A stretch of DNA of 64,000 nt, taken from sequence record NC_054925.1; one strand, written 5' to 3'. The notes under the pieces are model-generated. The model was not told the origin of the DNA. It did not search any database and saw nothing but the letters and a program-made list of their open reading frames with translations. Positions 10,345-44,497 of the stretch are shown piece after piece. How positions within the stretch are numbered: position 1 is the first letter of the stretch; each line of letters begins with the position of its first letter. Source of the stretch: Escherichia phage vB_EcoM_NBG2. Made by a program: the position numbers and the translations under genes.

Positions 10345-10354
10345 TATACTTCCA

Positions 10355-10873: not shown

Positions 10874-11166
10874 TGTCAGGATTAAGTTATGATAAGTGTG
10901 TCACTGCTGGCCATGAAGCGTGGCCTCCAACAGTTGTGAATGCTACACAAAGTAAAGTATTCACTGGAGGAATTGCTGTTCTCGTAGCAGGTGATCCAAT
11001 TACAGAACATACAGAAATTAAAAAGCCATATGAAACACATGGCGGAGTGACACAACCTAGAACTTCTAAGGTATATGTCACTGGAAAGAAAGCTGTTCAA
11101 ATGGCTGATCCAATATCATGCGGTGATACTGTGGCTCAGGCATCATCTAAAGTATTCATTAAATAG
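10873..11166 (+). CDS. 5.4: gp5.4 PAAR-like spike tip protein, 97 aa
   Basis: Size and position match T4 gp5.4. Confidence 0.7.
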
Positions 11167-11174
11167 GATTTAAA

Positions 11175-13157
11175 ATGGCAAATACCCCTGTAAATTATCA
11201 ATTAACAAGAACAGCAAATGCTATTCCCGAGATATTCGTCGGGGGTACATTTGCTGAAATAAAACAAAACCTCATTGAATGGCTTAATGGTCAAAATGAA
11301 TTTTTGGATTATGATTTTGAAGGCTCAAGATTAAACGTTCTGTGCGACCTTTTGGCTTATAACACATTATACATTCAGCAGTTTGGTAATGCTGCCGTGT
11401 ATGAAAGCTTTATGCGTACTGCTAACTTACGTAGTTCAGTAGTTCAAGCGGCACAAGATAATGGATATTTACCTACTTCAAAATCAGCTGCTCAAACTGA
11501 AATTATGCTAACTTGCACAGACGCATTGAATAGAAATTACATTACTATTCCTCGTGGTACTCGCTTTTTAGCATATGCAAAAGATACTTCCGTTAATCCT
11601 TACAACTTTGTATCTACCGAAGATGTTATTGCTATTCGCGATAAAAATAACCAATATTTTCCGCGTTTAAAATTAGCCCAGGGACGTATAGTAAGAACTG
11701 AAATCATTTATGATAAATTAACACCTATTATCATTTATGACAAAAATATAGATAGAAACCAAGTTAAACTATACGTTGATGGAGCAGAATGGATTAACTG
11801 GACAAGAAAGTCAATGGTTCATGCTGGTTCTACATCAACAATTTACTACATGCGTGAAACTATTGATGGAAATACTGAATTTTATTTTGGTGAAGGTGAG
11901 ATTTCTGTTAACGCGGCAGAAGGAGCATTGACCGCTAATTATATTGGGGGTCTTAAACCTACCCAGAACTCTACGATTGTTATTGAGTACATCAGTACTA
12001 ACGGTGCAGATGCGAATGGTGCAGTCGGATTTTCATACGCAGATACATTAACAAATATAACTGTCATCAATATTAACGAAAATCCAAATGATGACCCAGA
12101 TTTTGTTGGGGCAGATGGCGGCGGCGATCCAGAAGATATTGAGCGTATTCGCGAATTGGGTACTATTAAACGCGAAACCCAGCAACGCTGCGTAACTGCG
12201 ACTGATTATGATACATTCGTTTCAGAAAGATTCGGTTCTATTATTCAAGCGGTTCAGACTTTCACTGATTCTACTAAACCTGGTTATGCATTTATTGCTG
12301 CTAAACCTAAATCAGGACTATATTTAACTACTGTACAACGTGAAGATATTAAAAATTATCTCAAAGATTATAATTTAGCTCCTATTACACCATCAATTAT
12401 TTCTCCTAATTATCTTTTTGTTAAGACTAATTTAAAAGTCACATATGCTTTAAATAAGCTGCAAGAATCAGAACAGTGGCTAGAAGGTCAAATAATTGAT
12501 AAAATTGATCGTTATTATACCGAAGATGTAGAAATTTTTAACTCATCTTTCGCTAAATCTAAGATGCTGACATACGTAGATGATGCAGATCATTCTATCA
12601 TTGGCTCATCCGCGACAATTCAAATGGTACGTGAAGTACAAAACTTCTATAAAACGCCTGAAGCGGGTATTAAATACAATAATCAAATAAAAGATCGTTC
12701 TATGGAATCTAATACGTTTTCATTTAATTCCGGACGAAAGGTTGTAAATCCTGATACTGGCTTAGAAGAAGATGTATTATATGACGTTCGTATAGTATCA
12801 ACAGACCGAGATTCTAAAGGAATTGGTAAAGTTATTATTGGTCCATTTGCTTCGGGTGATGTTACAGAAAATGAAAACATTCAGCCATATACAGGCAATG
12901 ATTTTAATAAATTAGCAAGTTCCGATGGACGTGACAAATACTATGTTATCGGTGAAATAAATTATCCAGCTGACATGATTTATTGGAATATCGCTAAAAT
13001 TAATTTAACATCCGATAAATTTGAGGTTCAGACTATTGAGCTATATTCTGATCCAATAGACGATGTTATTTTCACACGCGATGGTTCACTGATCGTATTT
13101 GAAAATGATTTACGTCCACAATACTTAACTATCGATTTGGAGCCTATATCACAATGA
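11175..13157 (+). CDS. 6: baseplate wedge protein gp6, 660 aa
   Basis: Size and synteny. Confidence 0.85.
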   Translation: MANTPVNYQLTRTANAIPEIFVGGTFAEIKQNLIEWLNGQNEFLDYDFEGSRLNVLCDLLAYNTLYIQQFGNAAVYESFMRTANLRSSVVQAAQDNGYLPTSKSAAQTEIMLTCTDALNRNYITIPRGTRFLAYAKDTSVNPYNFVSTEDVIAIRDKNNQYFPRLKLAQGRIVRTEIIYDKLTPIIIYDKNIDRNQVKLYVDGAEWINWTRKSMVHAGSTSTIYYMRETIDGNTEFYFGEGEISVNAAEGALTANYIGGLKPTQNSTIVIEYISTNGADANGAVGFSYADTLTNITVININENPNDDPDFVGADGGGDPEDIERIRELGTIKRETQQRCVTATDYDTFVSERFGSIIQAVQTFTDSTKPGYAFIAAKPKSGLYLTTVQREDIKNYLKDYNLAPITPSIISPNYLFVKTNLKVTYALNKLQESEQWLEGQIIDKIDRYYTEDVEIFNSSFAKSKMLTYVDDADHSIIGSSATIQMVREVQNFYKTPEAGIKYNNQIKDRSMESNTFSFNSGRKVVNPDTGLEEDVLYDVRIVSTDRDSKGIGKVIIGPFASGDVTENENIQPYTGNDFNKLASSDGRDKYYVIGEINYPADMIYWNIAKINLTSDKFEVQTIELYSDPIDDVIFTRDGSLIVFENDLRPQYLTIDLEPISQ

Positions 13158-16100
13158 CAGTAAAAGCACCTTCAGTCACTAGTCTCAGAATTTCCAAGTT
13201 ATCCGCAAATCAGGTGCAAGTACGCTGGGATGACGTTGGTGCTAATTTCTACTATTTTGTAGAAATCGCTGAGACAAAAACAGACTCGGGGGAAAATCTC
13301 CCGAGTAATCAATACAGATGGGTTAACTTAGGATATACTGCAAATAACAGCTTCTTTTTTGATGATGCCGACCCATTGACATCGTACATTATTAGAGTAG
13401 CTACAGCTGCGCAGGATTTTGAGCAGTCTGATTGGATTTATACTGAAGAGTTTGAAACTTTTGCTACAAACGCTTATACATTTCAAAACATGATTGAAAT
13501 GCAATTAGCTAATAAATTCATTCAGGAAAAATTTACTCTTAATAATTCTGACTATGTCAATTTTAACAATGACACTATAATGGCTGCATTGATGAATGAA
13601 TCGTTTCAATTCAGCCCATCATATGTTGATGTTTCATCAATAAGTAATTTTATTATTGGTGAAAATGAGTATCATGAAATACAAGGTTCTATTCAGCAAG
13701 TATGTAAGGATATTAACCGAGTTTATTTGATGGAATCAGAAGGGATTCTATATCTTTTTGAGCGTTATCAACCTGTAGTTAAAGTATCTAATGATAAAGG
13801 ACAAACCTGGAAAGCTGTAAAGCTCTTCAATGACCGCGTAGGATATCCTTTATCTAAGACTGTATATTACCAATCTGCGAACACAACATATGTTCTAGGA
13901 TACGACAAGATTTTCTACGGCCGCAAATCTACTGATGTTAGATGGTCAGCTGATGATGTCAGATTTAGTTCGCAGGATATAACATTCGCTAAACTTGGCG
14001 ACCAATTACATCTAGGATTTGATGTAGAAATTTTTGCCACTTACGCGACTTTACCAGCTAATGTATATCGCATTGCAGAAGCTATTACTTGCACCGATGA
14101 TTACATTTACGTTGTCGCCAGAGACAAAGTTAGATACATAAAAACGAGTAATGCACCTATAGATTCTGATCCATTATCTCCAACGTATTCGGAAAGGCTA
14201 TTTGAACCTGATACGATGACTATAACTGGAAATCCTAAAGCAGTATGTTATAAAATGGATTCTATTGGTGATAAAGTTTTTGCTCTTATTATTGGTGAAG
14301 TTGAAACATTAAATGCTAATCCTAGAACATCAAAAATAATTGATTCTGTTGATAAAGGAATATATGTTTTAAATCATGACACAAAAACGTGGAAAAGAGT
14401 TTTTGGCAACACTGAAGAAGAAAGAAGACGTATTCAACCAGGGTATGCGAATATGTCAACTGATGGTAAATTAGTTTCTTTATCTTCTAGTAATTTTAAA
14501 TTTTTAAGCGATAACGTTGTTAATGACCCTGAAACTGTGGTGAAGTATCAGTTAATCGGTGCTGTTAAATATGAATTTCCTCGTGAATGGCTAGCTGATA
14601 AGCATTATCATATGATGGCATTTATAGCAGATGAAAAATCTGATTGGGAAACTTTTACACCTCAGCCGATGAAATACTACGCAGAACCATTCTTTAACTG
14701 GTCTAAAAAATCTAACACACGCTGTTGGATAAACAACTCTGATAGAGCTGTAGTAGTTTATGCTGATTTAAAATACACCAAAGTTATAGAAAATATTCCG
14801 GAAACATCACCAGATAGATTAGTTCATGAATACTGGGATGATGGTGATTGTACGATAGTAATGCCAAATGTTAAATTCACGGGATTTAAAAAATACGCAT
14901 CTGGGATGCTTTTTTATAAGTCTTCTGGTGAAATAATTTCTTACTATGATTTTAACTATCGAGTGAGAGACACGGTTGAAATAATTTGGAAGCCAACTGA
15001 AATATTTTTAAAAGCATTTTTACAAAACCAAGAGCGTGAAACTCCTTGGTCCCCGGAAGAAGAGCATGGATTAACTGATCCTGATTTAAGACCATTGATT
15101 GGCACAATGATGCCTGATTCTTATCTGCTACAGGATTCTAATTTTGAGGCATTCTGCGAAGCATATATTCAGTATCTTTCTGATGGATATGGAACTCAGT
15201 ATAATAATTTACGAAATTTAATTCGTAACCAATATCCGCGAGAAGAGCACGCGTGGGAATATTTGTGGTCAGAGATATATAAAAGAAACATTTATTTAAA
15301 TGCTGATAAACGTGATGCTGTTGCAAGATTTTTTGAATCACGTAGCTATGATTTTTATTCTACTAAAGGAATTGAAGCATCATACAAATTTCTTTTTAAA
15401 GTTCTTTATAATGAAGAAGTTGAAATTGAAATTGAATCTGGGGCTGGTACTGAATATGATATAATCGTTCAATCTGATTCTTTAACCGAAGACTTAGTAG
15501 GACAAACGATTTATACAGCTACAGGAAGATGTAATGTTACTTATATAGAAAGAAGCTATTCTAATGGTAAATTGCAATGGACCGTAACTATTCATAATCT
15601 TTTAGGAAGATTAATTGCCGGTCAAGAAGTTAAAGCAGAAAGACTCCCTAGTTTCGAAGGAGAAATTATTCGCGGGGTTAAAGGAAAGGATTTGCTTCAA
15701 AATAATATAGACTATATTAATAGAAGTAGATCATATTATGTAATGAAAATTAAATCCAATTTACCTTCTTCCCGCTGGAAATCTGACGTTATTCGTTTTG
15801 TTCATCCAGTAGGATTTGGATTTATAGCAATTACCCTTTTAACAATGTTTATTAATGTTGGTTTAACTCTTAAACATACAGAGACTATAATTAATAAATA
15901 CAAAAACTATAAATGGGATTCTGGATTGCCTACTGAATATGCTGATAGAGTAGCCAAATTGACTCCAACCGGTGAAATTGAGCATGATTCAGTAACAGGC
16001 GAAGCAATTTATGAACCTGGCCCAATGGCTGGTGTAGAATATCCTCTTCCTGATGACTATAATGCTGAAAATAATAATTCAATATTTCAAGGTCAATTGC

Positions 16101-16252
16101 CATCTGAACGACGTAAATTAATGAGTCCTCTATTTGATGCATCTGGAACAACATTTGCGCAATTTAGGGATTTAGTTAATAAACGTCTAAAAGATAATAT
16201 AGGAAATCCAAGAGACCCTGAAAATCCAACACAGGTTAAAATAGATGAATGA
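13154..16252 (+). CDS. 7: baseplate wedge protein gp7, 1032 aa
   Basis: Size and synteny. Confidence 0.85.
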   Translation: MTVKAPSVTSLRISKLSANQVQVRWDDVGANFYYFVEIAETKTDSGENLPSNQYRWVNLGYTANNSFFFDDADPLTSYIIRVATAAQDFEQSDWIYTEEFETFATNAYTFQNMIEMQLANKFIQEKFTLNNSDYVNFNNDTIMAALMNESFQFSPSYVDVSSISNFIIGENEYHEIQGSIQQVCKDINRVYLMESEGILYLFERYQPVVKVSNDKGQTWKAVKLFNDRVGYPLSKTVYYQSANTTYVLGYDKIFYGRKSTDVRWSADDVRFSSQDITFAKLGDQLHLGFDVEIFATYATLPANVYRIAEAITCTDDYIYVVARDKVRYIKTSNAPIDSDPLSPTYSERLFEPDTMTITGNPKAVCYKMDSIGDKVFALIIGEVETLNANPRTSKIIDSVDKGIYVLNHDTKTWKRVFGNTEEERRRIQPGYANMSTDGKLVSLSSSNFKFLSDNVVNDPETVVKYQLIGAVKYEFPREWLADKHYHMMAFIADEKSDWETFTPQPMKYYAEPFFNWSKKSNTRCWINNSDRAVVVYADLKYTKVIENIPETSPDRLVHEYWDDGDCTIVMPNVKFTGFKKYASGMLFYKSSGEIISYYDFNYRVRDTVEIIWKPTEIFLKAFLQNQERETPWSPEEEHGLTDPDLRPLIGTMMPDSYLLQDSNFEAFCEAYIQYLSDGYGTQYNNLRNLIRNQYPREEHAWEYLWSEIYKRNIYLNADKRDAVARFFESRSYDFYSTKGIEASYKFLFKVLYNEEVEIEIESGAGTEYDIIVQSDSLTEDLVGQTIYTATGRCNVTYIERSYSNGKLQWTVTIHNLLGRLIAGQEVKAERLPSFEGEIIRGVKGKDLLQNNIDYINRSRSYYVMKIKSNLPSSRWKSDVIRFVHPVGFGFIAITLLTMFINVGLTLKHTETIINKYKNYKWDSGLPTEYADRVAKLTPTGEIEHDSVTGEAIYEPGPMAGVEYPLPDDYNAENNNSIFQGQLPSERRKLMSPLFDASGTTFAQFRDLVNKRLKDNIGNPRDPENPTQVKIDE

Positions 16253-17249
16253 TTCAAGTGTTATCTATCGTGCGATAGTTACTTCAAAATTTAGAACAGA
16301 AAAAATGTTGAATTTTTATAATTCAATTGGAAGTGGTCCGGATAAAAACACTATCTTTATTACATTTGGAAGATCAGAACCGTGGTCATCAAACGAAAAT
16401 GAGGTGGGATTTGCCCCACCTTATCCCACCGATTCTGTGTTAGGTGTAACTGACATGTGGACTCATATGATGGGAACCGTGAAGGTTCTTCCATCTATGC
16501 TTGATGCAGTTATTCCTCGTCGAGATTGGGGGGATACTAGATATCCGGATCCATACACATTTAGAATTAACGATATTGTAGTGTGTAACTCAGCTCCTTA
16601 CAACGCTACCGAATCAGGCGCAGGCTGGTTAGTATATCGTTGTTTAGATGTTCCTGATACCGGAATGTGCTCAATTGAGTCTTTAACTAATAAGGATGAA
16701 TGCCTTAAGTTAGGTGGAAAATGGACTCCTTCTGTTAGGTCAATGACTCCTCCTGAAGGTCGAGGAGACGCGGAAGGAACAATCGAACCTGGAGACGGGT
16801 ATGTATGGGAATATCTTTTTGAGATTCCGCCTGATGTATCTATAAACAGATGCACAAATGAATATATCGTAGTTCCTTGGCCTGAGGAATTAAAAGAAGA
16901 CCCAACTAGATGGGGGTATGAAGATAACCTCACCTGGCAGCAAGATGATTTTGGATTAATTTACCGGGTTAAGGCAAATACTATTCGTTTTAAAGCATAC
17001 TTAGATTCAGTGTATTTTCCTGAAGCTGCATTGCCAGGAAATAAAGGATTTAGACAAATATCGATAATCACGAATCCTCTTGAAGCTAAAGTTCATCCAA
17101 ATGACCCAAACGTTAAAGCTGAAAAGGATTACTATGATCCGGAAGATTTAATGAGGCATTCGGGCGAAATGATTTATATGGAAAATAGGCCACCTATTAT
17201 TATGGCAATGGATCAAACAGAAGAAATCAATATTCTGTTTACATTTTAA
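16245..17249 (+). CDS. 8: baseplate wedge protein gp8, 334 aa
   Basis: Size and synteny. Confidence 0.85.
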   Translation: MNDSSVIYRAIVTSKFRTEKMLNFYNSIGSGPDKNTIFITFGRSEPWSSNENEVGFAPPYPTDSVLGVTDMWTHMMGTVKVLPSMLDAVIPRRDWGDTRYPDPYTFRINDIVVCNSAPYNATESGAGWLVYRCLDVPDTGMCSIESLTNKDECLKLGGKWTPSVRSMTPPEGRGDAEGTIEPGDGYVWEYLFEIPPDVSINRCTNEYIVVPWPEELKEDPTRWGYEDNLTWQQDDFGLIYRVKANTIRFKAYLDSVYFPEAALPGNKGFRQISIITNPLEAKVHPNDPNVKAEKDYYDPEDLMRHSGEMIYMENRPPIIMAMDQTEEINILFTF

Positions 17250-17254
17250 ATTAA

Positions 17255-17279
17255 GGGAGCCCATGGGCTCCCTTTTTCT
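17255..17279 (+). terminator. intrinsic terminator after gene 8 (stem GGGAGCCCAUGGGCUCCC plus U5)
   Basis: Perfect palindromic stem followed by ttttt. Confidence 0.65.
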
Positions 17280-17280
17280 T

Positions 17281-17288
17281 TATAAATA
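17281..17288 (+). promoter_or_regulatory. T4 late promoter TATAAATA for gene 9
   Basis: Exact octamer 25 nt upstream of the gp9 ATG. Confidence 0.55.
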
Positions 17289-17312
17289 CTATAAACTCAT
17301 AAGGAAACCGCT

Positions 17313-18179
17313 ATGTTCATTCAAGAACCAAAGAAATTGATTGATACCGGCGAAATTGGTAACGCTTCTACTGGTGATATCTTATTCGACGGTGGTAATA
17401 AAATTAATAGTGATTTTAACGCAATTTATAACGCGTTTGGCGATCAGCGTAAAATGGCAGTAGCAAATGGCACTGGTGCTAACGGCCAAATTATCCATGC
17501 TACTGGATATTATCAAAAACACTCTATTGCAGAGTACGCAACTCCAGTAAAAGTTGGTACTAGACATGATATTGATACCTCTACTGTTGGTGTTAAAGTT
17601 ATCATTGAAAGAGGCGAACTTGGCGACTGCGTTGAATTTATTAACTCAAATGGATCAATATCAGTTACTAATCCTTTAACGATTCAAGCTATTGATTCAA
17701 TTAAAGGCGTTTCAGGTAATTTGGTAGTAACTAGCCCATATAGTAAAGTTACTTTACGTTGTATTTCATCTGATAATTCTACGTCAGTTTGGAATTATTC
17801 TATTGAAAGTATGTTTGGCCAAAAGGAATCACCGGCCGAAGGTACATGGAATATTTCTACATCTGGGTCAGTTGACATTCCATTATTTCATCGTACTGAA
17901 TATAACATGGCTAAATTGTTAGTTACATGCCAATCAGTAGATGGAAGAAAAATTAAAACAGCAGAAATAAATATTCTTGTAGATACTGTTAATTCAACGG
18001 TCATTTCTTCTGAATATGCTGTCATGCGGGTTGGGAATGAAACCGAAGAAGACGAAATCGCTAATATTGCATTTAGTATTAAAGAAAATTATGTAACGGC
18101 GACTATAAGTTCTTCAACTGTCGGTATGAGAGCAGCAGTTAAAGTTATCGCTACGCAGAAAATCGGGGTGGCTCAATAA
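17313..18179 (+). CDS. 9: baseplate protein gp9 (long tail fiber socket), 288 aa
   Basis: Size and synteny. Confidence 0.85.
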   Translation: MFIQEPKKLIDTGEIGNASTGDILFDGGNKINSDFNAIYNAFGDQRKMAVANGTGANGQIIHATGYYQKHSIAEYATPVKVGTRHDIDTSTVGVKVIIERGELGDCVEFINSNGSISVTNPLTIQAIDSIKGVSGNLVVTSPYSKVTLRCISSDNSTSVWNYSIESMFGQKESPAEGTWNISTSGSVDIPLFHRTEYNMAKLLVTCQSVDGRKIKTAEINILVDTVNSTVISSEYAVMRVGNETEEDEIANIAFSIKENYVTATISSSTVGMRAAVKVIATQKIGVAQ

Positions 18180-19984
18180 TGAAACAAAATATTAATATCG
18201 GTAATGTTGTTGATGATGGTACCGGTGACTACCTGCGTAAAGGTGGTATAAAAATAAATGAAAACTTTGATGAACTTTATTATGAACTTGGTGATGGAGA
18301 TGTTCCATATTCAGCCGGTGCCTGGAAAACTTATGATGCTTCATCTGGACAAACACTAACGGCAGAATGGGGAAAATCATACGCTATTAATACCTCTTCT
18401 GGAAGAGTAACTCTACAACTTCCTAAAGGAACTGTTAATGATTACAACAAGGTAATTAGAGCTAGAGACGTATTCGCTACATGGAACATCAATCCAGTTA
18501 CTTTAGTAGCTGCTTCCGGAGATACAATTAAAGGGTCGTCATCGTCAGTTGAAATTAATATTCAATTTAGTGATTTAGAGCTCGTTTATTGCGCTCCAGG
18601 ACGCTGGGAGTATGTCAAAAATAAGCAAATTGATAAAATTATTAGTTCAGACATTAGTAATGTAGCTCGCAAAGAATTTTTAGTTGAAGTTCAAGGGCAA
18701 ACAGACTTTTTAGATGTTTTCAATGGAACTAGTTATAATGTCAATAACATCAGAGTAAAACATCGTGGTAACGAATTGTATTACGGTGATGTATTTAGCG
18801 AAAATAGTGACTTTGGCTCTCCGGGCGAAAATGAAGGCGAATTAGTTCCTCTTGATGGATTTAATATTCGATTAAGACAGCCTTGTAATATTGGTGACAC
18901 CGTTCAAATTGAAACATTTATGGATGGTGTATCACAATGGAGAAGTTCATATACAAGACGCCAAATAAAAGTACTAGATTCAAAACTAACATCAAAGACT
19001 TCTTTAGAAGGAAGCATTTATGTTACTGATTTATCGGCGATGAAATCAATTCCATTTTCTGCATTTGGATTAATTCCTGGTGAACCCATTAATCCTAATT
19101 CTCTTGAGGTTCGTTTTAATGGAATTTTACAGCAGCAGGCTGGAACCGCTGGATATCCTCTGTTTTTGTGTGAAGGCGCTAGTTCAGATACGCGAGAAGG
19201 TTGTATATCTCTTGGTGGTGAATGGAAAGAATCAAACACAGATTATTCTATAGAATATGAAGATGGAAAACCTACCAGTCTTTTATTTGATAGAAAATTT
19301 GAATCAGGTGATATAATCGTTATAACGTGGTTCAATAATGATTTAGGAACTCTTTTAGAAAAAGATGACATTATTGAATTAACGGATGACCGTTATGTTA
19401 GCAAAGGATCATCTACCGAAGTTACTGGTGATGTAGCCTTAACAGATTTTGATAAAATCGGTTGGCCAAATGTTGAAAAAGTTGATTCTTATACTAGAAT
19501 GTATAATTCAATATCATCTATTTTCGACAGCATTTATCCTGTTGGTTCAATTTATGAAAATGCTATAAATCCAAATAATCCGGTGACTTATATGGGATTT
19601 GGTTCATGGAAATTATTTGGTAAAGGACAAGTTTTAGTAGGATGGAATGATGATGTTACGGATCCAAACTTTGCTTTAAACAATAATGATTTAGATTCTA
19701 GCGGAAATCCTTCACATACTGCCGGTGGAACAGTTGGAACAACAACGGTGACACTTGAAAACGCAAATCTTCCTGCAACTAAAACCGACGAAAGAGTTTT
19801 AATTGAAGACGAAAACGGATCAGTTATTATTGGAGGTTGCCAATATGACCCAGATGAAACTGGTCCTATATATACAAAATATCGTGAAGACTACGCAACA
19901 ACAAACTCTTCACATACTCCTCCTGCTAATATTAGTAATATTCAACCGTCTATTACTGTATACCGTTGGATAAGGATTGCATAA
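18179..19984 (+). CDS. 10: baseplate protein gp10, 601 aa
   Basis: Size and synteny. Confidence 0.85.
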
Positions 19985-20643
19985 TGAGTTTACTTAATAA
20001 TAAAGCGGGAGTTATTTCCCGCTTAGCAGATTTTCTTGGTTTTAGAACTAAGAAAAATGATATTTCGGTTATGAATAATCAGCCAGTAGGCGCTGTAACA
20101 ATTTCACAAATAGCAAAAGGTTTTTATGACCCAAATGTAGAATCTGCTATCAATGATGTTAGAAATATGGCAGAGCAACAAGTTGGAGCTGTATTAGTTA
20201 ATATAAGCGGCGTATCTCCTACTGGCGTGCAGCAAACAGACTATTGGTCATTTGAAGGAACTGTCAATGATACTTCAGCCAAACCAGGTGACCCAGTTAT
20301 TGTTAACATGTTTGGCATTCCTGTTAAAGCTACTAATGGAATGACTTCAATCGAATTTACCAGTGCCGTTAGAACAGCTCTGCAGGAAATGGTTGCAAAA
20401 TTTATTGCAATTGATTCATTTGAAGACCATCCTACCATAGGAAATAAAATACAAGTTAAGTATTTAGATAACCAAGAACATATCTTAGAACAATACTCTG
20501 ATAAAGGAATTACTTTCAAACAAGAAATAATTTCTCCTTCTAAACCTGGATACGGAACTTGGCAATTATTAGGTGCGCAAACTGTCACGCTAGATAGTCA
20601 CACACAACCTACGGTATTTTATTATTTTGAGAGAATAGCATGA
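19984..20643 (+). CDS. 11: baseplate protein gp11, 219 aa
   Basis: Start set to ATG overlapping the gene 10 stop (TAATG), giving 219 aa. Confidence 0.8.
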
Positions 20644-22196
20644 GTAACAATACATATCAGCACGTATCAAATGAATCAAAATATGTTAAATTCGATCCTA
20701 CTGGATCGAATTTTCCTGACACTGTCACGACAGTGCAGTCTGCATTATCAAAAATAAGTAATATCGGCGTAAATGGTATTCCTGATGCAACTATGGAAGT
20801 TAAAGGAATAGCAATGATTGCGTCAGAGCAAGAGGTTTTAGATGGAACTAATAATTCTAAAATCGTTACACCAGCTACATTAGCAACAAGATTATTGTAT
20901 CCAAATGCTACTGAAACTAAGTATGGTTTAACGCGCTATTCAACAAATGAAGAAACATTAGAAGGCTCAGATAATAATTCATCAATAACGCCGCAAAAAC
21001 TGAAATACCATACTGACGATGTGTTCCAAAATAGATATTCGTCTGAGTCATCAAACGGGGTTATTAAAATATCATCTACACCTGCAGCTTTAGCTGGAGT
21101 TGATGATACTACGGCGATGACTCCATTAAAAACGCAAAAACTTGCAATAAAATTAATTTCACAAATAGCTCCTTCCGAAGATACTGCATCAGAATCTGTG
21201 AGAGGTGTAGTTCAATTATCTACTGTTGCGCAAACTCGTCAAGGAACTCTCCGCGAAGGATATGCAATTTCTCCGTATACCTTTATGAATTCTGTTGCAA
21301 CACAAGAATATAAGGGTGTTATACGTTTAGGAACACAATCGGAAATTAACAGTAATTTAGGAGATGTTGCAGTAACAGGTGAAACACTAAATGGTCGAGG
21401 AGCTACTGGTTCTATGCGTGGGGTGGTAAAATTAACGACGCAAGCCGGTATTGCCCCTGAAGGTGATAGCTCTGGTGCATTAGCATGGAACGCAGATGTA
21501 ATTAATACTCGTGGTGGACAAACTATTAATGGTTCTTTAAATTTAGACCATCTTACAGCAAACGGAATTTGGTCGCGCGGCGGAATGTGGAAAAATGGCG
21601 ATCAACCTGTTGCCACTGAAAGATATGCGTCAGAAAAGGTTCCAGTTGGAACTATTATGATGTTTGCGGGAGATTCAGCACCTCCGGGTTGGATTATGTG
21701 CCATGGTGGAACAGTGTCAGGAGATCAATATCCTGATTATAGAAACACAGTTGGAACAAGATTTGGTGGTGATTGGAATAATCCTGGTATTCCTGATATG
21801 CGAGGTCTTTTCGTCAGAGGAGCCGGCACGGGCGGTCATATTTTAAATCAACGAGGACAAGATGGTTATGGGAAGGATAGACTTGGTGTAGGATGTGACG
21901 GAATGCATGTTGGTGGCGTTCAGGCACAACAAATGTCATACCATAAACATGTTGGTGCCTGGGGGGAAAATGGAAATAACAGAGGTTATGCACCGTTTGG
22001 CGCATCTAATGGCAGTGGATATTTAGGCAATGGTAGAAGCGCCGACTGGGACAACCATTTGTTCTTTACTAACGACGGATTTGAAATGGGTGGTGCTCGT
22101 GACTCGTTTGGCACGTTAAACCGTGAAGGATTAATTGGTTATGAAACTAGACCATGGAATATATCATTAAACTATATTATTAAAGTTCATTACTAA
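20640..22196 (+). CDS. 12: short tail fiber protein gp12, 518 aa
   Basis: Size, synteny, Gly/Asn-rich receptor-binding C-terminus. Confidence 0.85.
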
Positions 22197-22205
22197 GGAT
22201 TACAA

Positions 22206-23663
22206 ATGATTGAATTAAAAGAGTTACCTTTTGTTGATAGCGTTCCTGGCGAAGGTCAGGAACGTATTTCATGGATTAAAAATGGTGAAGAAATATTAGG
22301 AGCTAGTACTAAGTATGGAAACGATGGGTCAATGAATAGACCAACTGTTTCCGTGTTTAAAAATGTCGAGGTTCTCGACGAAAATGTAGGAATTCTTAAA
22401 ACTGCCATTGAAACATCTCAGGAAGATATTAAAACAATTCAAGGAGTTTTAGATGTATCAGGAGATATAGAAGCACTATCGCAGATCAGCATTAATAAAA
22501 ATGATATATCAAATTTAAAGACACTTACTAATGAACACACTGATATATTAACTGGAACTAATAATACAGTTGATAATATTCTTTCTGATATTGGTCCATT
22601 TAATTCGCAAGCAAATTCAGTTTATAGAACGATTAGAAATGATTTGTTATGGATTAAAAGAGAATTAGGACAATATGCTGGGCAAGACATTAATGGTCTT
22701 CCTGTTGTAGGAAATAGCAGCACGGGTATGAAGCACCGCATCATTAATAATACAGATGCTATAACTTCCCAAGGAATACGTCTAAGTGATTTGGAAGAAA
22801 AATTTATTGAATCTGATGTAGGTTCACTGACAATTGAAGTCGGAAATCTTAGACAAGAACTTGGACAAAGACCATCTTCATTCAGTGAAAGCATATATTC
22901 ACGTGTTCATAATTTAGATCAATCGCAGATTAATCTTAGTTCCGAAATTAAATCTATCAAAACTTCTATTGGATATCCAGGAAATACTTCAATAATCACA
23001 GATGTTAACACTAATACACGAGAAGTTTCAGCTTTAAATGATGAACTAAATAAAAGCGGAGGTATTAAACAACGATTGACTGTCATTGAAACGTCAATTG
23101 GCTCAGATGATATTCCTTCTAGTATTAAAGGTAGAATTAAAGATAATACCACATCAATTGAGTTTTTAAATGGAATTGTTGGTGAAAACACTTCATCTGG
23201 ACTACGAGCAAACGTTTCATGGCTAAACCAAATCGTTGGAACTGATTCTAGTGGAGGTCAGCCTTCTCCTCCTGGGTCTCTTTTAAATAGGGTTTCAACT
23301 GTTGAAACTTCAGTTAATAGACTGAACAATGATGTTCAAAACTTACAAGTTGAAATTGGTAATAACACTACTGGAATTAAAGGCCAAGTTGTTGCACTAA
23401 ATAAACTAGTAAGCGGCACAAATCCAAATGGTTCAACAGTAGAAGAGCGCGGATTAACTAATTCAATAAAAGCTAATGAAACTAACATTTCTTCTATTAA
23501 TCAAGAAATGCGTAGTATTAAAAGTAATGTATCTTCATTACAGGGGGATGTTCAGACTTTACAGGAAGCAGGTTATATCCCTGAAGCTCCAAAAGATGGC
23601 CAAGCTTACGTTCGTAAAGACGGCGAATGGGTACTACTTTCTACCTTTTTATCACCAGCATAA
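22206..23663 (+). CDS. wac: fibritin (whisker antigen control), 485 aa
   Basis: C-terminal foldon [27 protein letters not shown]; coiled-coil body. Confidence 0.9.
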
Positions 23664-23666
23664 CAT

Positions 23667-23682
23667 GGGGCCGCAAGGCCCC
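23667..23682 (+). terminator. stem-loop GGGGCCGCAAGGCCCC after wac; weak U-tract
   Basis: Seen directly; followed by aaaggattttt. Confidence 0.4.
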
Positions 23683-23695
23683 AAAGGATTTTTAA

Positions 23696-25397
<1,702 letters not shown>

Positions 25398-25438: not shown

Positions 25439-28579
<3,141 letters not shown>

Positions 28580-28607: not shown

Positions 28608-30587
28608 ATGACTTTATTATCTCCGGGCATTGAGCTCAAAGAAACTACGGTTCAAAGCACCGTGGTTAATAACTCTACTGGTACAGCAGCTTTGGCCGGT
28701 AAATTCCAGTGGGGTCCTGCTTTTCAGATCAAACAGGTTACAAATGAAGTAGATTTAGTTAATACTTTTGGTCAACCTACAGCTGAAACTGCTGACTATT
28801 TTATGTCTGCAATGAATTTCTTACAATATGGAAATGATTTGCGAGTTGTGCGTGCTGTCGATAGAGATACCGCTAAAAACTCATCTCCGATTGCTGGTAA
28901 TATTGAATACACTATTTCTACCCCAGGTAGTAACTACGCGGTTGGAGATAAAATCACAGTTAAGTATGTTTCAGAAGACATTGAAACGGAAGGTAAAATT
29001 ACCGAAGTAGATGCTGATGGAAAAATTAAGAAAATTAATATTCCTACCGCAAAAATTATCGCTAAAGCGAAAGAAGTCGGTGAATATCCAGCATTAGGTT
29101 CTAACTGGACCGCGGAAATTTCTTCGTCTTCCTCTGGTTTAGCTGCAGTAATAACTCTTGGAAAAATTATTACTGATTCTGGTATTTTATTAGCTGAAAT
29201 TGAAAATGCCGAAGCTGCTATGACAGCGGTTGAATTTCAAACAAATCTCGAAAAATATGGAATTCCAGGAGTAGTAGCTCTTTATCCAGGCGAGTTGGGC
29301 GATAAAATCGAAATCGAAATCGTATCTAAAGCTGACTACGCAAAAGGAGCTTCTGCATTACTCCCAATTTATCCAGGTGGCGGAACACGCGCATCTACTG
29401 CCAAAGCAGTGTTTGGATATGGACCACAAACTGATTCGCAATACGCTATTATAGTTCGTCGTAATGATGCTATTGTTCAAAGCGTTGTTCTTTCAACAAA
29501 GCGTGGTGAAAAAGATATTTACGATAGTAACATCTACATTGATGACTTTTTCGCAAAAGGCGGTTCAGAATATATTTTCGCAACTGCACAAAACTGGCCA
29601 GAAGGATTCTCTGGAATTTTAACTCTGTCTGGTGGATTATCATCAAATGCTGAAGTAACAGCAGGAGATTTGATGGAAGCTTGGGACTTCTTTGCTGACC
29701 GTGAATCTGTTGACGTTCAGTTGTTTATTGCGGGTTCTTGTGCCGGTGAATCTTTAGAAACAGCATCTACTGTCCAAAAACACGTCGTTTCAATTGGGGA
29801 TGCTCGCCAGGATTGCTTAGTATTGTGCTCACCACCGCGCGAAACTGTAGTTGGAATTCCTGTAACTCGCGCTGTTGATAACTTAGTCAATTGGAGAACC
29901 GCAACAGGTTCATACACTGATAATAACTTTAATATCAGTTCAACCTACGCAGCAATTGATGGTAACTACAAATATCAGTATGACAAATATAATGATGTCA
30001 ATCGCTGGGTTCCATTAGCAGCTGATATTGCCGGTTTATGTGCAAGAACCGATAACGTTTCTCAGACTTGGATGTCTCCAGCTGGTTATAATCGCGGCCA
30101 GATTCTTAACGTTATTAAACTTGCTATTGAAACTCGCCAAGCTCAGCGCGACCGTTTATATCAAGAAGCTATCAACCCAGTAACTGGTACAGGTGGTGAT
30201 GGTTACGTATTATATGGTGATAAAACAGCTACTTCTGTTCCTTCTCCATTTGATCGTATTAACGTTCGTCGTCTGTTTAATATGTTGAAAACGAATATCG
30301 GACGTAGTTCAAAATATCGTTTGTTCGAATTAAACAACGCGTTTACTCGTTCATCATTCCGCACAGAAACTGCCCAATACTTACAGGGAATTAAAGCTCT
30401 CGGTGGAATTTATGAATATCGTGTAGTTTGCGATACAACAAATAACACTCCGTCAGTAATTGATAGAAATGAGTTTGTTGCAACATTCTACATCCAACCG
30501 GCTCGTAGTATAAATTATATCCAACTTAATTTCGTCGCAACTGCTACTGGTGCAGATTTTGATGAGTTAACTGGTCTTGCAGGTTAA
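28608..30587 (+). CDS. 18: tail sheath protein gp18, 659 aa
   Basis: Size and synteny. Confidence 0.9.
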   Translation: MTLLSPGIELKETTVQSTVVNNSTGTAALAGKFQWGPAFQIKQVTNEVDLVNTFGQPTAETADYFMSAMNFLQYGNDLRVVRAVDRDTAKNSSPIAGNIEYTISTPGSNYAVGDKITVKYVSEDIETEGKITEVDADGKIKKINIPTAKIIAKAKEVGEYPALGSNWTAEISSSSSGLAAVITLGKIITDSGILLAEIENAEAAMTAVEFQTNLEKYGIPGVVALYPGELGDKIEIEIVSKADYAKGASALLPIYPGGGTRASTAKAVFGYGPQTDSQYAIIVRRNDAIVQSVVLSTKRGEKDIYDSNIYIDDFFAKGGSEYIFATAQNWPEGFSGILTLSGGLSSNAEVTAGDLMEAWDFFADRESVDVQLFIAGSCAGESLETASTVQKHVVSIGDARQDCLVLCSPPRETVVGIPVTRAVDNLVNWRTATGSYTDNNFNISSTYAAIDGNYKYQYDKYNDVNRWVPLAADIAGLCARTDNVSQTWMSPAGYNRGQILNVIKLAIETRQAQRDRLYQEAINPVTGTGGDGYVLYGDKTATSVPSPFDRINVRRLFNMLKTNIGRSSKYRLFELNNAFTRSSFRTETAQYLQGIKALGGIYEYRVVCDTTNNTPSVIDRNEFVATFYIQPARSINYIQLNFVATATGADFDELTGLAG

Positions 30588-30595
30588 TTGATTAT

Positions 30596-30609
30596 GGGGC
30601 TTCGGCCCC
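30596..30609 (+). terminator. stem-loop GGGGC-UUCG-GCCCC immediately after gene 18
   Basis: UUCG tetraloop hairpin; no strong U-tract. Confidence 0.4.
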
Positions 30610-30674
30610 TATTCTCGAGGAAACAAGTGATTATTTCTAAGTTTGTTACAATAAAACCAAGAAATCATTCAAAA

Positions 30675-31232
30675 ATGTGGTCGACAATTCTGGGATATAA
30701 AGTATCATATCATGATACAGTATCTGTTCCAATAGAATTAATGCCAAAGAATAGTAATAAAATAGTTGACGCTAAGTGTGATTTGTGTGGTATTAAATTT
30801 AGTAGAAGCATTCAGCTTTTAAATAGAACACCCACGCATGCATGTAGAAAATGTAGCATTAAACAAGTTGCTATTAAAAATTCGGAAGTTCAATCTGGAA
30901 TAAGCAGACCATGGCAAAGAGGTGATAAACATCCTCGATGGACTGGTAAAAGAAAAGAGTTTGCATTATATGCTAGTAGAGTTCATTCTATAACTAAGTC
31001 AGCTAAAATAAGAAAAATCTGGTCAAAATGGCCGAATGCTGATAAAATAGGAGTGTGTGGTACAAAAGGTGCTTACCAACTCGATCATAAGGTATCTATC
31101 AAATATGGATTTGATAATTTAATTCCGCCGGAAATTATAGCAAGCGTAAAAAATTTAGAAATAATCACTTGGGAATCTAACCGAGAAAAGTCAAAAAGAA
31201 ATAGCGTAGATCTTTGGGATTTACTAGAATGA
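30675..31232 (+). CDS. HNH-family homing endonuclease-like protein (start uncertain; track ORF begins at 30588)
   Basis: Cys pairs CDLCG...CRKCS followed by YQLDHKVSIKYGFDN...NLEIITWESN, an HNH-like motif; sits between genes 18 and 19. Confidence 0.55.
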   Translation: MWSTILGYKVSYHDTVSVPIELMPKNSNKIVDAKCDLCGIKFSRSIQLLNRTPTHACRKCSIKQVAIKNSEVQSGISRPWQRGDKHPRWTGKRKEFALYASRVHSITKSAKIRKIWSKWPNADKIGVCGTKGAYQLDHKVSIKYGFDNLIPPEIIASVKNLEIITWESNREKSKRNSVDLWDLLE

Positions 31233-31239
31233 TTCTAAA

Positions 31240-31257
31240 GGCCTGTTTCGGCAGGCC
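31240..31257 (+). terminator. stem-loop GGCCTG...CAGGCC after the HNH ORF
   Basis: 6-bp stem seen directly; no U-tract. Confidence 0.35.
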
Positions 31258-31258
31258 A

Positions 31259-31266
31259 TATAAATA
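31259..31266 (+). promoter_or_regulatory. T4 late promoter TATAAATA (distal, upstream of gene 19)
   Basis: Exact octamer. Confidence 0.45.
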
Positions 31267-31317
31267 CACTATATCCTTAATTCTTTAATTCTATATGCCC
31301 TAGGTTAAACATAGGGA

Positions 31318-31325
31318 TATAAATA
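31318..31325 (+). promoter_or_regulatory. T4 late promoter TATAAATA (proximal) for gene 19
   Basis: Exact octamer 15 nt upstream of the gp19 ATG. Confidence 0.55.
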
Positions 31326-31339
31326 CTACAGAGGCTAAT

Positions 31340-31831
31340 ATGTTTGTAGATGATGTAACACGAGCGTTTGAATCTGGTGATTTTGCTCGACCTAACTTAT
31401 TCCAAGTAGAAATTTCTTATCTTGGACAAAATTTTACGTTTCAATGCAAAGCCACTGCTTTACCAGCTGGTATTGTAGAAAAAATTCCAGTCGGATTTAT
31501 GAACCGTAAAATTAACGTAGCAGGCGATCGTACATTCGATGACTGGACTATTACAGTAATGAATGATGAGGCACATGATGCACGCCAGAAGTTTGTTGAC
31601 TGGCAAAGCATTGCTGCTGGGCAAGGAAACGAAATTACTGGTGGAAAACCAGCAGAGTATAAAAAGAGTGCTATTGTACGCCAATATGCTCGTGACGCTA
31701 AAACTGTAACAAAAGAAGTCGAAATTAAAGGCCTGTGGCCTACTAACGTGGGTGAACTTCAGTTAGATTGGGATTCAAACAATGAAATCCAAACCTTTGA
31801 AGTAACTCTCGCTCTCGATTATTGGGAATAA
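31340..31831 (+). CDS. 19: tail tube protein gp19, 163 aa
   Basis: Size and synteny. Confidence 0.85.
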   Translation: MFVDDVTRAFESGDFARPNLFQVEISYLGQNFTFQCKATALPAGIVEKIPVGFMNRKINVAGDRTFDDWTITVMNDEAHDARQKFVDWQSIAAGQGNEITGGKPAEYKKSAIVRQYARDAKTVTKEVEIKGLWPTNVGELQLDWDSNNEIQTFEVTLALDYWE

Positions 31832-31835
31832 AATG

Positions 31836-31853
31836 AATGGGGAGAAATCCCCA
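31836..31853 (+). terminator. stem-loop AUGGGGA-GAAA-UCCCCAU after gene 19
   Basis: 7-bp stem with GNRA loop. Confidence 0.4.
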
Positions 31854-31863
31854 TCCTGCTTAA

Positions 31864-33488
<1,625 letters not shown>

Positions 33489-37230: not shown

Positions 37231-37244
37231 TCTTTGACGATTTA

Positions 37245-37263
37245 AGGGACCTTCGGGTCCCTT
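37245..37263 (+). terminator. intrinsic terminator after gene 23 (GGGACC-UUCG-GGUCCC plus U-rich tail)
   Basis: Perfect stem with UUCG loop then tttagttgttttt. Confidence 0.6.
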
Positions 37264-37278
37264 TAGTTGTTTTTATGG

Positions 37279-37286
37279 TATAAATA
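37279..37286 (+). promoter_or_regulatory. T4 late promoter TATAAATA for gene 24
   Basis: Exact octamer 28 nt upstream of the gp24 ATG. Confidence 0.55.
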
Positions 37287-37313
37287 AATCATATAAACTG
37301 AAAGGAAAGCGCA

Positions 37314-42368: not shown

Positions 42369-42986
42369 ATGTACCACTTTGTATATGAAACAACAAATCT
42401 AATAAATGGTAAAAAGTATATAGGAAAGCACTCTACTGATGACTTGAATGATGGTTACCTTGGTTCCGGTAAGGCAATTCAGCAGGCTATAAAGAAATAT
42501 GGTGAAAACAATTTCTCTAGAACAATACTAAAAGAGTTTAAAACTTCCGAAGAAGCGTACATGTATGAAGAAGAAATTATAACTCCTGAACTAATAAAAA
42601 GCAAAAATTATTATAATATGAAACCTGGTGGAATTGGTGGAATTGTTATGACTACAGATGTTATAGCAAAGATGAAAGAATCTTCCGCTAAAAGATTTGA
42701 AAACTCACCGGGCACGGTATTAGGTAAAACTTGTTATACTAATGGAACTAAAAATATTTTTATTAAACCTGGAGAACTTGTTCCAGAAGGATTTGTAAAA
42801 GGGATGGTTCATCCTAATAGAAAGTCCAGAAAAGGATGTAAAGTCAAACCGACTACCACAGGAACTTTTTGGGTCAATAATGGCACAATAAATAAATTAA
42901 TACAACCAGACGGTATTATTCCCGACGGATTTATTAAAGGTCGTCTCATGAAAAGAGATTCTAAAGGCAAATTTAGTAAGGCATAA
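42369..42986 (+). CDS. segD: GIY-YIG homing endonuclease, 205 aa
   Basis: N-terminal GIY-YIG module (FVY...YIGKH, conserved R, E, N); position between inh and uvsW as for T4 segD. Confidence 0.7.
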   Translation: MYHFVYETTNLINGKKYIGKHSTDDLNDGYLGSGKAIQQAIKKYGENNFSRTILKEFKTSEEAYMYEEEIITPELIKSKNYYNMKPGGIGGIVMTTDVIAKMKESSAKRFENSPGTVLGKTCYTNGTKNIFIKPGELVPEGFVKGMVHPNRKSRKGCKVKPTTTGTFWVNNGTINKLIQPDGIIPDGFIKGRLMKRDSKGKFSKA

Positions 42987-42988: not shown

Positions 42989-44497
42989 ATGGATATTAAA
43001 GTACATTTTCACGACTTCAGTCATGTACGCATCGATTGTGAAGAGAGCACGTTCCACGAATTAAGAGATTTCTTTTCGTTTGAGGCCGATGGATATAGAT
43101 TTAATCCTCGCTTCAGATATGGCAACTGGGATGGACGAATCCGTCTTTTAGATTATAATCGCCTTCTTCCATTCGGTTTAGTCGGGCAAATTAAAAAGTT
43201 CTGTGATAACTTTGGCTATAAAGCCTGGATTGACCCGCAAATTAACGAAAAAGAAGAATTATCAAGAAAAGATTTTGATGAATGGCTTTCTAAATTAGAA
43301 ATCTATTCAGGAAATAAAAGAATTGAACCACACTGGTATCAAAAAGATGCAGTGTTCGAAGGATTAGTTAATCGTCGTAGAATTCTTAATCTTCCAACAT
43401 CCGCTGGTAAATCGTTAATTCAAGCTTTGCTTGCGCGATATTATTTGGAAAATTATGAAGGTAAAATTCTTATCATTGTTCCAACAACTGCTCTGACAAC
43501 TCAGATGGCTGATGACTTCGTCGACTATCGTTTATTCAGTCATGCAATGATAAAGAAAATTGGCGGCGGAGCATCAAAAGATGATAAATATAAAAATGAT
43601 GCACCAGTCGTTGTTGGTACATGGCAAACTGTAGTTAAACAACCGAAAGAATGGTTCTCACAGTTTGGAATGATGATGAATGATGAATGCCATCTTGCTA
43701 CAGGAAAAAGTATTTCATCTATCATATCAGGTTTAAATAACTGCATGTTCAAATTCGGTTTGTCTGGTTCATTACGTGATGGCAAAGCCAATATCATGCA
43801 GTATGTTGGAATGTTTGGTGAAATATTTAAGCCAGTAACGACTTCTAAATTAATGGAAGATGGACAAGTAACTGAGCTAAAAATTAATAGTATTTTTCTT
43901 CGCTATCCCGATGAGTTCACTACTAAATTAAAGGGAAAAACTTATCAAGAAGAAATAAAAATTATTACTGGGCTTAGTAAAAGAAATAAATGGATCGCTA
44001 AATTAGCTATTAAGCTTGCGCAAAAAGATGAAAACGCTTTTGTCATGTTTAAACATGTATCGCATGGTAAAGCTATTTTCGATTTAATTAAAAATGAATA
44101 CGATAAAGTTTATTACGTATCAGGGGAAGTTGATACCGAAACCCGCAATATAATGAAAACCTTAGCTGAAAATGGTAAAGGAATAATTATAGTAGCTAGT
44201 TATGGTGTATTTTCTACTGGTATTTCAGTTAAAAATCTGCATCACGTTGTTTTAGCGCACGGTGTTAAATCAAAAATCATTGTATTACAAACAATCGGTC
44301 GTGTATTACGTAAGCATGGTTCTAAGACAATAGCAACCGTCTGGGACCTCATAGATGATTGTGGCGTTAAGCCAAAATCTGCTAATACGAAAAAGAAATA
44401 CGTTCATTTGAACTATCTTTTAAAACACGGCATTGATCGTATTCAGCGCTACGCAGATGAAAAATTTAATTACGTAATGAAAACAGTTAATTTATAA
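42989..44497 (+). CDS. uvsW: UvsW recombination/repair helicase, 502 aa
   Basis: SF2 helicase motifs (PTSAGKS Walker A, DECH box); size and position. Confidence 0.9.
   Translation: MDIKVHFHDFSHVRIDCEESTFHELRDFFSFEADGYRFNPRFRYGNWDGRIRLLDYNRLLPFGLVGQIKKFCDNFGYKAWIDPQINEKEELSRKDFDEWLSKLEIYSGNKRIEPHWYQKDAVFEGLVNRRRILNLPTSAGKSLIQALLARYYLENYEGKILIIVPTTALTTQMADDFVDYRLFSHAMIKKIGGGASKDDKYKNDAPVVVGTWQTVVKQPKEWFSQFGMMMNDECHLATGKSISSIISGLNNCMFKFGLSGSLRDGKANIMQYVGMFGEIFKPVTTSKLMEDGQVTELKINSIFLRYPDEFTTKLKGKTYQEEIKIITGLSKRNKWIAKLAIKLAQKDENAFVMFKHVSHGKAIFDLIKNEYDKVYYVSGEVDTETRNIMKTLAENGKGIIIVASYGVFSTGISVKNLHHVVLAHGVKSKIIVLQTIGRVLRKHGSKTIATVWDLIDDCGVKPKSANTKKKYVHLNYLLKHGIDRIQRYADEKFNYVMKTVNL

Follow-up and report, generated by a model that had tools for sequence, protein, structure and literature searches.

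A probable free-standing HNH homing-endonuclease gene between genes 18 and 19 of a T6-like phage

Introduction

Work on free-standing homing endonucleases takes the T-even phages as its reference system. Among mobA–mobE of T4, MobE is the characterised case, and I-HmuI (PDB 1u3e), the HNH homing endonuclease of Bacillus phage SPO1, is one of the closest known systems to the protein described here. For SegF and SegG, which are GIY-YIG enzymes, cleavage and marker exclusion have reportedly been demonstrated, whereas for the present protein, a predicted HNH enzyme, cleavage and homing are what we infer. Hef-like (Vsr-like) genes of T4-related, ViI-like and Campylobacter phages are likewise sporadic and free-standing, and one of them, F-LimVIII of Dickeya phage LIMEstone1, has a tail-tube gene tabulated downstream (PMC3296691).

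Here, we describe a gene inserted between gene 18 (tail sheath) and gene 19 (tail tube) of Escherichia phage vB_EcoM_NBG2, identified in a window of 64,000 nucleotides (the whole stretch of DNA analysed, from NC_054925.1). This 18|19 gene is an uncharacterised representative of a known kind of element, the kind to which the free-standing mob (HNH) and seg (GIY-YIG) genes of T4 belong (PMC2988022). Like mobA–mobE, it is a small, optional intergenic gene on the same strand as its conserved neighbours, combines an HNH-type domain with a separate putative DNA-binding part, occurs sporadically in near-identical genomes, and has a presumed target in an adjacent conserved gene, away from the insertion point. 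It differs from the T4 Mob proteins in its insertion site and in its domain order, the nuclease domain being C-terminal and the zinc finger N-terminal. T6 and RB3 carry mob-like genes (PMC2993671), and a tblastn search with the window protein (E ≤ 1e-3) matched only the 18|19 locus in the Tequatrovirus genomes listed, including T6 and RB3; with no match elsewhere in mob-carrying genomes, we rejected a Mob homologue. Kinship to T6ORF154, the HNH ORF between genes 13 and 14 of T6, was rejected as well, as sequence comparison gave no similarity. The single-domain phage or prophage HNH endonucleases of Gme (4h9d) and GVE2 (5h0o), of ~95 aa, share 9–17% identity with the window protein and are without its N-terminal zinc finger and the helical segment preceding its core. 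The biology that we propose is that of SegG and SegF, i.e., a cut at a distance in a neighbouring conserved gene, co-conversion of flanking sequence, and resistant target polymorphisms in carriers (PMC2988022).

Results

A base-precise insert between genes 18 and 19

The window comes from a Tequatrovirus near T6 (best match across 30000–31900: Shigella phage SF2-1, 99.1% identity) and keeps the T4 gene order, with genes 17 (26744–28576), 18 (28608–30587) and 19 (31340–31831) followed by gene 20. An ORF was called on the + strand between genes 18 and 19, at 30588–31232. We aligned this junction with those of T4, T6 and RB3, and with 19 further junctions. In 12 of 12 insert-free genomes compared, the stop codon of gene 18 and TTCTAAAGGCC are separated by TACGGTGCA alone, the empty site; in carriers, 645–657 bp take the place of TACGGTGCA, starting immediately 3' of that stop codon and with a base-precise boundary. 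The features of the junction are as follows.

30588..31232, + strand: insert relative to T4, 645 bp, in place of the 9-nt TACGGTGCA of insert-free Tequatroviruses
30596..30609, + strand: insert-borne GC-rich stem-loop GGGGCTTCGGCCCC with a cUUCGg tetraloop, present in both T6-type and RB3-type inserts (the two alleles described below)
31240..31257, + strand: native stem-loop GGCCTG-TTTCGG-CAGGCC, outside the insert, directly following gene 18 in T4
31259..31266, + strand: native late-promoter consensus TATAAATA, found in insert-free phages too
31318..31325, + strand: native late-promoter consensus TATAAATA upstream of gene 19, found in insert-free phages too

The initial annotation had placed an endonuclease gene at 30588–31339, between the gene 18 hairpin and two late promoters of gene 19, and had taken T4 to have no gene at this position. 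The last point was borne out by the junction alignment, in which T4 has only TACGGTGCA. The ORF itself was also correctly located, but its end was not, as the stretch up to 31339 includes the native intergenic region. Both TATAAATA octamers are found before gene 19, but insert-free phages have them and the 31240–31257 stem-loop in identical or nearly identical form, which makes all three native T4 sequence outside the insert. Similarly, a hairpin does precede the gene, but it is the insert-borne GGGGCTTCGGCCCC, which forms part of the leader 5' to the endonuclease ORF and restores a stem-loop right after gene 18, while the hairpin that gene 18 has in T4 now lies downstream.

Start codon and expression signals

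30627..31232, + strand: HNH endonuclease ORF, 201 aa, with a likely GTG start and a TGA stop at 31230–31232; the same as T6ORF160 or ‘ORF19.1 of T6’
30617..30620, + strand: Shine-Dalgarno-like GAGG, 6 nt upstream of the GTG, as read from the sequence

The GTG at 30627 is likely the start codon. An alternative TTG start at 30588 was dropped on three grounds: the PHROG 5104 profile aligns only from residue 14 of the TTG-started protein onwards, the GTG is the annotated start in the T6, PST and RB3 records, and indels upstream of the GTG in N2, Ptacy1496 and W143 shift the frame of any extension to the TTG. Counts of sigma-70 promoters in the insert were no better than in shuffled sequences, and a terminator scan of the insert found none. 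The fold of the leader RNA (30575–30660) had a z-score of −0.29, with no significant structure beyond the UUCG hairpin and no convincing sequestration of the ribosome-binding site. Since the insert has no TATAAATA of its own, we propose that the gene would be transcribed late, through read-through from gene 18.

A divergent HNH domain joined to an N-terminal zinc finger

30627..30911, + strand: predicted N-terminal zinc-finger domain, approximately residues 1–95, with the pattern CxxC-x18-CxxC (Cys codons at 30777, 30786, 30843 and 30852)
30939..31229, + strand: predicted C-terminal HNH (beta-beta-alpha-metal) nuclease domain, from alignments, fold matches and Pfam matches of homologues
31083–31085, 31086–31088, 31152–31154 and 31179–31181, + strand: HNH codons for D153, H154, N176 and N185, respectively

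Eleven positions are invariant in an alignment of 22 full-length homologues: C54, Y150, Q151, D153, H154, N176, L177, W182, N185, R186 and K188. These include the Asp-His and the two Asn of an HNH-like motif, YQLDH...NL...N, whose spacing in YQLDHKVSIKYGF...NLEIITWESNREK matches the His-Asn-Asn form of HNH. We also drew 43 diverse C-terminal domains from related loci of the family and scanned them against Pfam. The equivalents of D153-H154, N176 (with Leu next to it) and N185 were invariant in all of them, and PF01844 (HNH) matched 7 of the 43 (best E 2.4e-5), HNH_4 matched 3 and HNH_5 matched 1. Both the motif seen by the initial annotation and the catalytic His/Asn residues expected of a homing endonuclease are therefore present and invariant across the family alignment.

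The window protein itself matched no HNH model in Pfam, PHROGs or NCBIfam, its only strong match being to PHROG 5104 (‘unknown function’). Sequence searches of the PDB with the protein, the family profile and a profile of the C-terminal domain returned only chance matches to zinc-finger and leucine-rich-repeat proteins, and Foldseek found no PDB match below E 0.6. Against viral structure models, Foldseek retrieved members of the family first, followed by proteins annotated as HNH, homing or NUMOD endonucleases. In the predicted structure, the C-terminal core has the beta-hairpin and alpha-helix of the HNH fold, with the Asp-His pair at the end of strand 1, N176 as the structural Asn ahead of strand 2 and N185 as the putative metal ligand within the helix. 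From these comparisons, we conclude that the C-terminal ~95 residues form a predicted divergent HNH domain with its catalytic set intact, and we infer nuclease activity. A literature search found no published cleavage, homing or biased-inheritance assay for the 18|19 protein.

The N-terminal ~95 residues were modelled confidently and gave weak treble-clef (DUF4379) matches; a low-confidence linker joins them to the HNH domain. The Zn-ribbon-like Cys pairs noted earlier correspond to C51/C54 and C73/C76 (201-aa numbering), of which C54 is invariant and C51 and C73 are ≥90% conserved, the conservation of C76 being read from alignment blocks. In relatives, the partner of this nuclease domain may instead be NUMOD3, an HTH or another zinc-finger module, and the N-terminal domain is probably the DNA-recognition module, its binding being putative.

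Some metagenomic proteins carry the present HNH domain fused to a module also found in a Hef-like protein. The 18|19 protein is nonetheless set apart from Hef-like (Vsr-type) endonucleases by annotation and fold: in Campylobacter phage F379, the Hef-like F379_132 is annotated as Vsr-type and is an ORF separate from the family member at the same locus, and the fold matches of the window protein are HNH proteins, not Vsr.

Sporadic distribution decoupled from the flanks

With presence defined as a record covering ≥80% of the query, 115 of ~519 Tequatrovirus-level records (~22%) carry the insert, and T4, T2, RB51 and most other Tequatroviruses do not. The junction otherwise holds a base-precise empty site, and the ORF, missing from ~78% of Tequatrovirus records, is not conserved in all relatives, in line with the mobile insertion first proposed.

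Population comparisons were based on 20 junctions (14 GenBank records, 5 IMG/VR loci and the window); the gp19-based scan of IMG/VR for Tequatrovirus junctions had yielded 15 loci. In gene 18, the nearest neighbour of the window is the insert-free IME537 (0.8% divergence), and that of the T6-type carrier N2 is the RB3-type carrier W143. The presence or absence of the insert is thus decoupled from the phylogeny of its flanks, although the high recombination of T-even phages could by itself produce such decoupling.

Two alleles of a protein under purifying selection

The insert occurs as two alleles, T6-type and RB3-type, which have common ends and unrelated middles. The leader and first codons (30588–30647) are 90–97% identical between the two, and most of the 3' 215 bp is common to both, with the exception of a short divergent stretch near 31120–31164. 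Between these lies the allele-specific segment.

30648..31010, + strand: allele-specific cassette, with ~45% nucleotide identity between T6-type and RB3-type (i.e., unrelated), compared to 93–97% at the two ends

As judged from this alignment, the alleles differ by exchange of a cassette that encodes the putative recognition domain.

Within the T6-type, we counted 18 synonymous and 4 non-synonymous codon differences, which points to purifying selection on the protein and argues for a functional product. This bears on whether the gene could be an inactive or decaying homing-endonuclease remnant, passively carried, with the variable patch in gene 18 (see below) a recombination scar or ordinary mosaicism. 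Decay would fit the GTG start, the missing promoter and the lack of a significant match of the window protein to a curated HNH model, and activity is undemonstrated for many T4 mob genes too (Table 1 in PMC2988022). The excess of synonymous differences, an ORF that is intact in ~68 T6-type records at 95–99% amino-acid identity, and catalytic residues without variation in the 43 diverse domains make such a remnant very unlikely.

A hypervariable patch at the 3' end of gene 18

30500..30538, + strand: hypervariable patch in the 3' end of gene 18, over the codons of ARSINYI(T/Q)LNFV; candidate cleavage or immunity site

Across the 20 Tequatrovirus junctions, diversity summed per 40 nt reached 7.39 at this patch, with an average of 1.68 and a second-highest value of 4.41. 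This peak, 50–88 nt before the stop codon, is the only outstanding one in the final 1,500 nt of gene 18 and the strongest across 2.2 kb of flanks, and ~100 invariant nt immediately precede it; a peak of this kind beside an invariant stretch also speaks against the scar or mosaicism that a passive remnant would leave. The changes are almost all synonymous, with one codon alternating between Thr and Gln, and ARSINYI(T/Q)LNFV is kept in all T4-like sheaths examined, even those with a C-terminus 45–60% identical to that of the window.

At least four patch haplotypes were observed among the 20 junctions. The T4-type was found in insert-free genomes only, one haplotype was shared by 5 of 5 T6-type carriers and another by 3 of 3 RB3-type carriers. 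Since insert-free IME537, IME340, T2 and RB51 carry non-T4 patches (T6-like, RB3-like or RB51-type), the patch is not diagnostic of the insert. In the other direction, a chimeric query joining a T4-type patch to the T6 insert reached at best 93.7% identity among ~125 insert-bearing records, so that the T4-type patch was never linked to the insert, and the 77 records that it matched at ≥99% presumably did so via the T4-type gene 18 part alone. From its sequence variation, the patch is a candidate for the site that the endonuclease cleaves, or at which carriers are immune. The mutual exclusion of T4-type patch and insert would fit an enzyme that cuts the naive patch in genomes other than its recoded carriers; it is not proof, as linkage alone could yield such an association over the 50–90 bp that separate patch and insert.

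The patch also contains TATAAATT (30509–30516), made by four synonymous changes common to all non-T4 haplotypes, and this permits another reading, in which the patch is a late promoter embedded in coding sequence that drives the endonuclease gene and travels with it, rather than a cleavage or immunity site. The octamer lies 111 nt upstream of the GTG, and the ATAAATTAT string recurs in several insert-bearing phages of other genera. We consider a promoter a rather unlikely explanation, given that the eighth base of TATAAATT deviates from the TATAAATA consensus, that TATAAATT occurs 10 times in the window, several of them intragenic, and also in insert-free phages, that three insert-bearing phages of other genera are without it, and that the haplotypes differ at many sites beyond the octamer.

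An old, site-faithful and probably mobile family

Beyond the genus, a pattern scan of IMG/VR returned 80 loci with relatives. Where the match includes the N-terminal domain, 34 of 39 loci have a gp18 and/or gp19 homologue next to the gene, which nearly always lies between both; where only the nuclease domain is shared, 8 of 41 do. A location at 18|19 thus goes with possession of the N-terminal domain (odds ratio 28, p = 6e-10, with no correction for relatedness). The 18|19 relatives extend to phages with gp18 ~45% and gp19 ~30–35% identical to those of the window. Overall, the family is faithful to the 18|19 site across very distant T4-like phages and sporadic among close relatives. In one cluster of another genus, for instance, one locus (L095) has the gene and two (L094 and L096) do not. 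Members also occur elsewhere: in Acinetobacter phage 133, one annotated as having ‘some similarity to ORF19.1 of T6’ splits rnlA into two ORFs, and in Campylobacter phage F379, a member that is itself broken into two ORFs sits inside a split tail-sheath gene. Because of the decoupling from flanks, the sporadic spread in another genus, the split rnlA and sheath genes, and the hot spot in gene 18, the family appears, from these genome comparisons, to behave as a mobile, modular homing-endonuclease family. The proposal of a recent homing-endonuclease insertion thus holds as to an optional and mobile gene, but only in part as to ‘recent’, the tie of the family to this junction being ancient.

The family is large: an exhaustive HMMER search retrieved representatives of 5,580 clusters at a threshold of E ≤ 1e-3, and of 1,597 (50%-identity clusters) at E ≤ 1e-10. 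It has no Pfam model of its own. Its members are usually named ‘hypothetical’ in databases; other names are ‘type II restriction endonuclease’, ‘HNH endonuclease’ (recent) and, wrongly, ‘holin’ and ‘head morphogenesis protein’. A 2010 census table of T4-related genomes leaves RB3 blank under ‘other HNH’ and lists only seg-like genes for Acj61. Both phages have a member of the family between genes 18 and 19, and the family was apparently missed by the 2010 censuses. A literature search for a gene between 18 and 19, ORF19.1, gp19.1 or T6ORF160 found no relevant description.

HNH proteins are also encoded beside terminase and portal genes in cos phages, e.g., HK97 gp74, and the 18|19 protein might by analogy be a packaging-associated HNH protein that aids terminase. 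T4-type phages, however, package by a headful mechanism with gp16/gp17, most relatives, T4 and T2 among them, lack the gene, which already implies normal packaging without it, and family members occur in unrelated contexts, so that we regard a packaging role as highly improbable.

The age of the tie to one locus in distant T4-like phages, together with the purifying selection, could instead point to a retained accessory nuclease kept by selection on the phage, which it would benefit by keeping out related phages in co-infection, promoting recombination or amplifying genes nearby. A precedent is SegB, a homing endonuclease of T6 for which a 2026 paper describes an anti-defence benefit (PMC13096335) and which is reported to amplify nearby genes. 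Such a role is compatible with homing. As the explanation for the gene, we give it a low probability, since most Tequatroviruses, and close relatives in the other genus, do not have the gene, no cargo gene adjoins the insert, and the gene-splitting members elsewhere fit selfish insertion better.

Discussion

Taken together, precise insertion, decoupling from the flanks, modularity, mobility elsewhere, retained function, the patch signature and site specificity lead us to interpret the 645-bp insert as a free-standing homing-endonuclease gene, with proposed targeting of gene 18 and recoding of carriers, to which we assign a probability of roughly two in three. Transcription would be late and low-level, by polymerases that read through from gene 18 and beyond the UUCG hairpin, and the GTG start would give weak translation. 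When an insert-free phage infects the same cell, its DNA would be bound by the N-terminal domain at the 3' end of gene 18, in the codons of the invariant sheath motif PARSINYI(T/Q)LNFVA, and would be nicked or cut there by the one HNH site. Repair that depends on recombination would then copy the gene and flanking markers from the insert-bearing genome, and the synonymous recoding of the patch would protect carriers. Insert-free genomes with a recoded patch could have arisen through loss of the gene, or through conversion tracts ending short of it.

A bolder version of this homing account would see a deep, site-faithful HNH lineage whose treble-clef domain reads the DNA for PARSINYI(T/Q)LNFVA, with T6-type and RB3-type alleles that compete, each with its own immunity recoding of gene 18, and with insert-free recoded phages as survivors of past attack. 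We offer it tentatively and consider it doubtful as a whole. If true, the contest between the two alleles would be an arms race of endonuclease against endonuclease like that of I-HmuI and I-HmuII, inside an essential structural gene.

The locus offers a natural test case, in which one junction holds two alleles with swapped putative recognition domains, at least four natural target haplotypes differ almost only synonymously, and classical laboratory phages provide both carriers (T6 and RB3) and empty sites (T4 and T2). With its annotation corrected, the gene also stands out as one likely to cause local exclusion of markers near genes 18 and 19, whether in crosses or among engineered therapeutic phages. 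The importance of the gene would grow if the patch is the target and the two alleles differ in specificity. Should the proposed target be the true one, a selfish nuclease would be tracking an invariant protein motif through a whole phage family, and the synonymous recoding of an essential gene would be a record of that conflict.

Late-promoter consensus upstream of gene 18

The 645-bp insert between the tail sheath gene (gene 18) and the tail tube gene (gene 19) has no late promoter of its own, and late transcripts that would enter it probably originate from the following promoter consensus, 29 nt downstream of which gene 18 starts.

Window 28572-28579, + strand: late-promoter consensus TATAAATA, overlapping the final codons of gene 17

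Endonuclease-gene content and mosaic identity relative to T6

T6-like phages vary widely among themselves in endonuclease-gene content. When the window was compared with T6 over the same stretch, four T6 insertions were found to be missing from the window phage:

Window ~10322-10336: lacks the seg-like ORF of T6, genes 5/5.1
Window ~24603-24623: lacks T6ORF154, the HNH ORF of T6, genes 13/14
Window ~37233-37302: lacks segD of T6, genes 23/24
Window 42989-44497: lacks the T6 ORF associated with split uvsW

The window uvsW gene is intact (502 aa) and lies directly downstream of a segE-like gene, an arrangement shared by T6 and T4.

Window 42369-42986, + strand: segE-like gene for a 205-aa GIY-YIG endonuclease with the residues YIGKHS...GYLGSG

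Identity to T6 was just 90.7% across genes 6-12 (window 10336-21350) and just 84% across the wac/gene 13 region (22130-24603), compared to 95-99% in the blocks adjoining these two regions. The baseplate and fibritin region of the window is of mosaic ancestry.

Among the compared loci, we also observed that gene 20 (portal) of Escherichia phage Ptacy1496 (L109, 3120-4305) is annotated as two ORFs, with a break at about residue 90 (tblastn), i.e., a frameshift or sequencing error.

Split genes, clustering, and domain fusions in the HNH family

Relatives of the insert-encoded protein were found within two split genes:

L084 1570-3647: rnlA region of Acinetobacter phage 133, annotated as pieces rnlA-A and rnlA-B
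L085 115-3484: split tail-sheath gene of Campylobacter phage F379, interrupted by ~1.6 kb

In phage 133, a 273-aa family member lies between rnlA-A and rnlA-B, with its ORF overlapping both, and rnlA is here a “gene in pieces” created by the HNH endonuclease family. The F379 sheath gene is broken at about T4 gp18 residue 516, and the intervening ~1.6 kb contains a family member whose own reading frame is split, giving ORFs of 290 aa and 113 aa that overlap. In this member, Ala takes the place of the Trp after the second strand.

Members can also be clustered or fused to other modules. One IMG/VR phage contig (L058/L059, 700-5800) encodes four separate ORFs with the family's HNH C-terminal domain in ~5 kb, and IMG/VR proteins of 540-580 aa (L061, L065, and L081) combine the HNH domain with a C-terminal module (HARKC...FL..HH.QG...MTFGKPR...). 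Compared by eye, this module is similar to one in a Campylobacter endonuclease:

L085 3519-4691, - strand: F379_132, “Vsr/Hef-like” homing endonuclease

This likeness suggests that endonuclease families have exchanged domains by shuffling.
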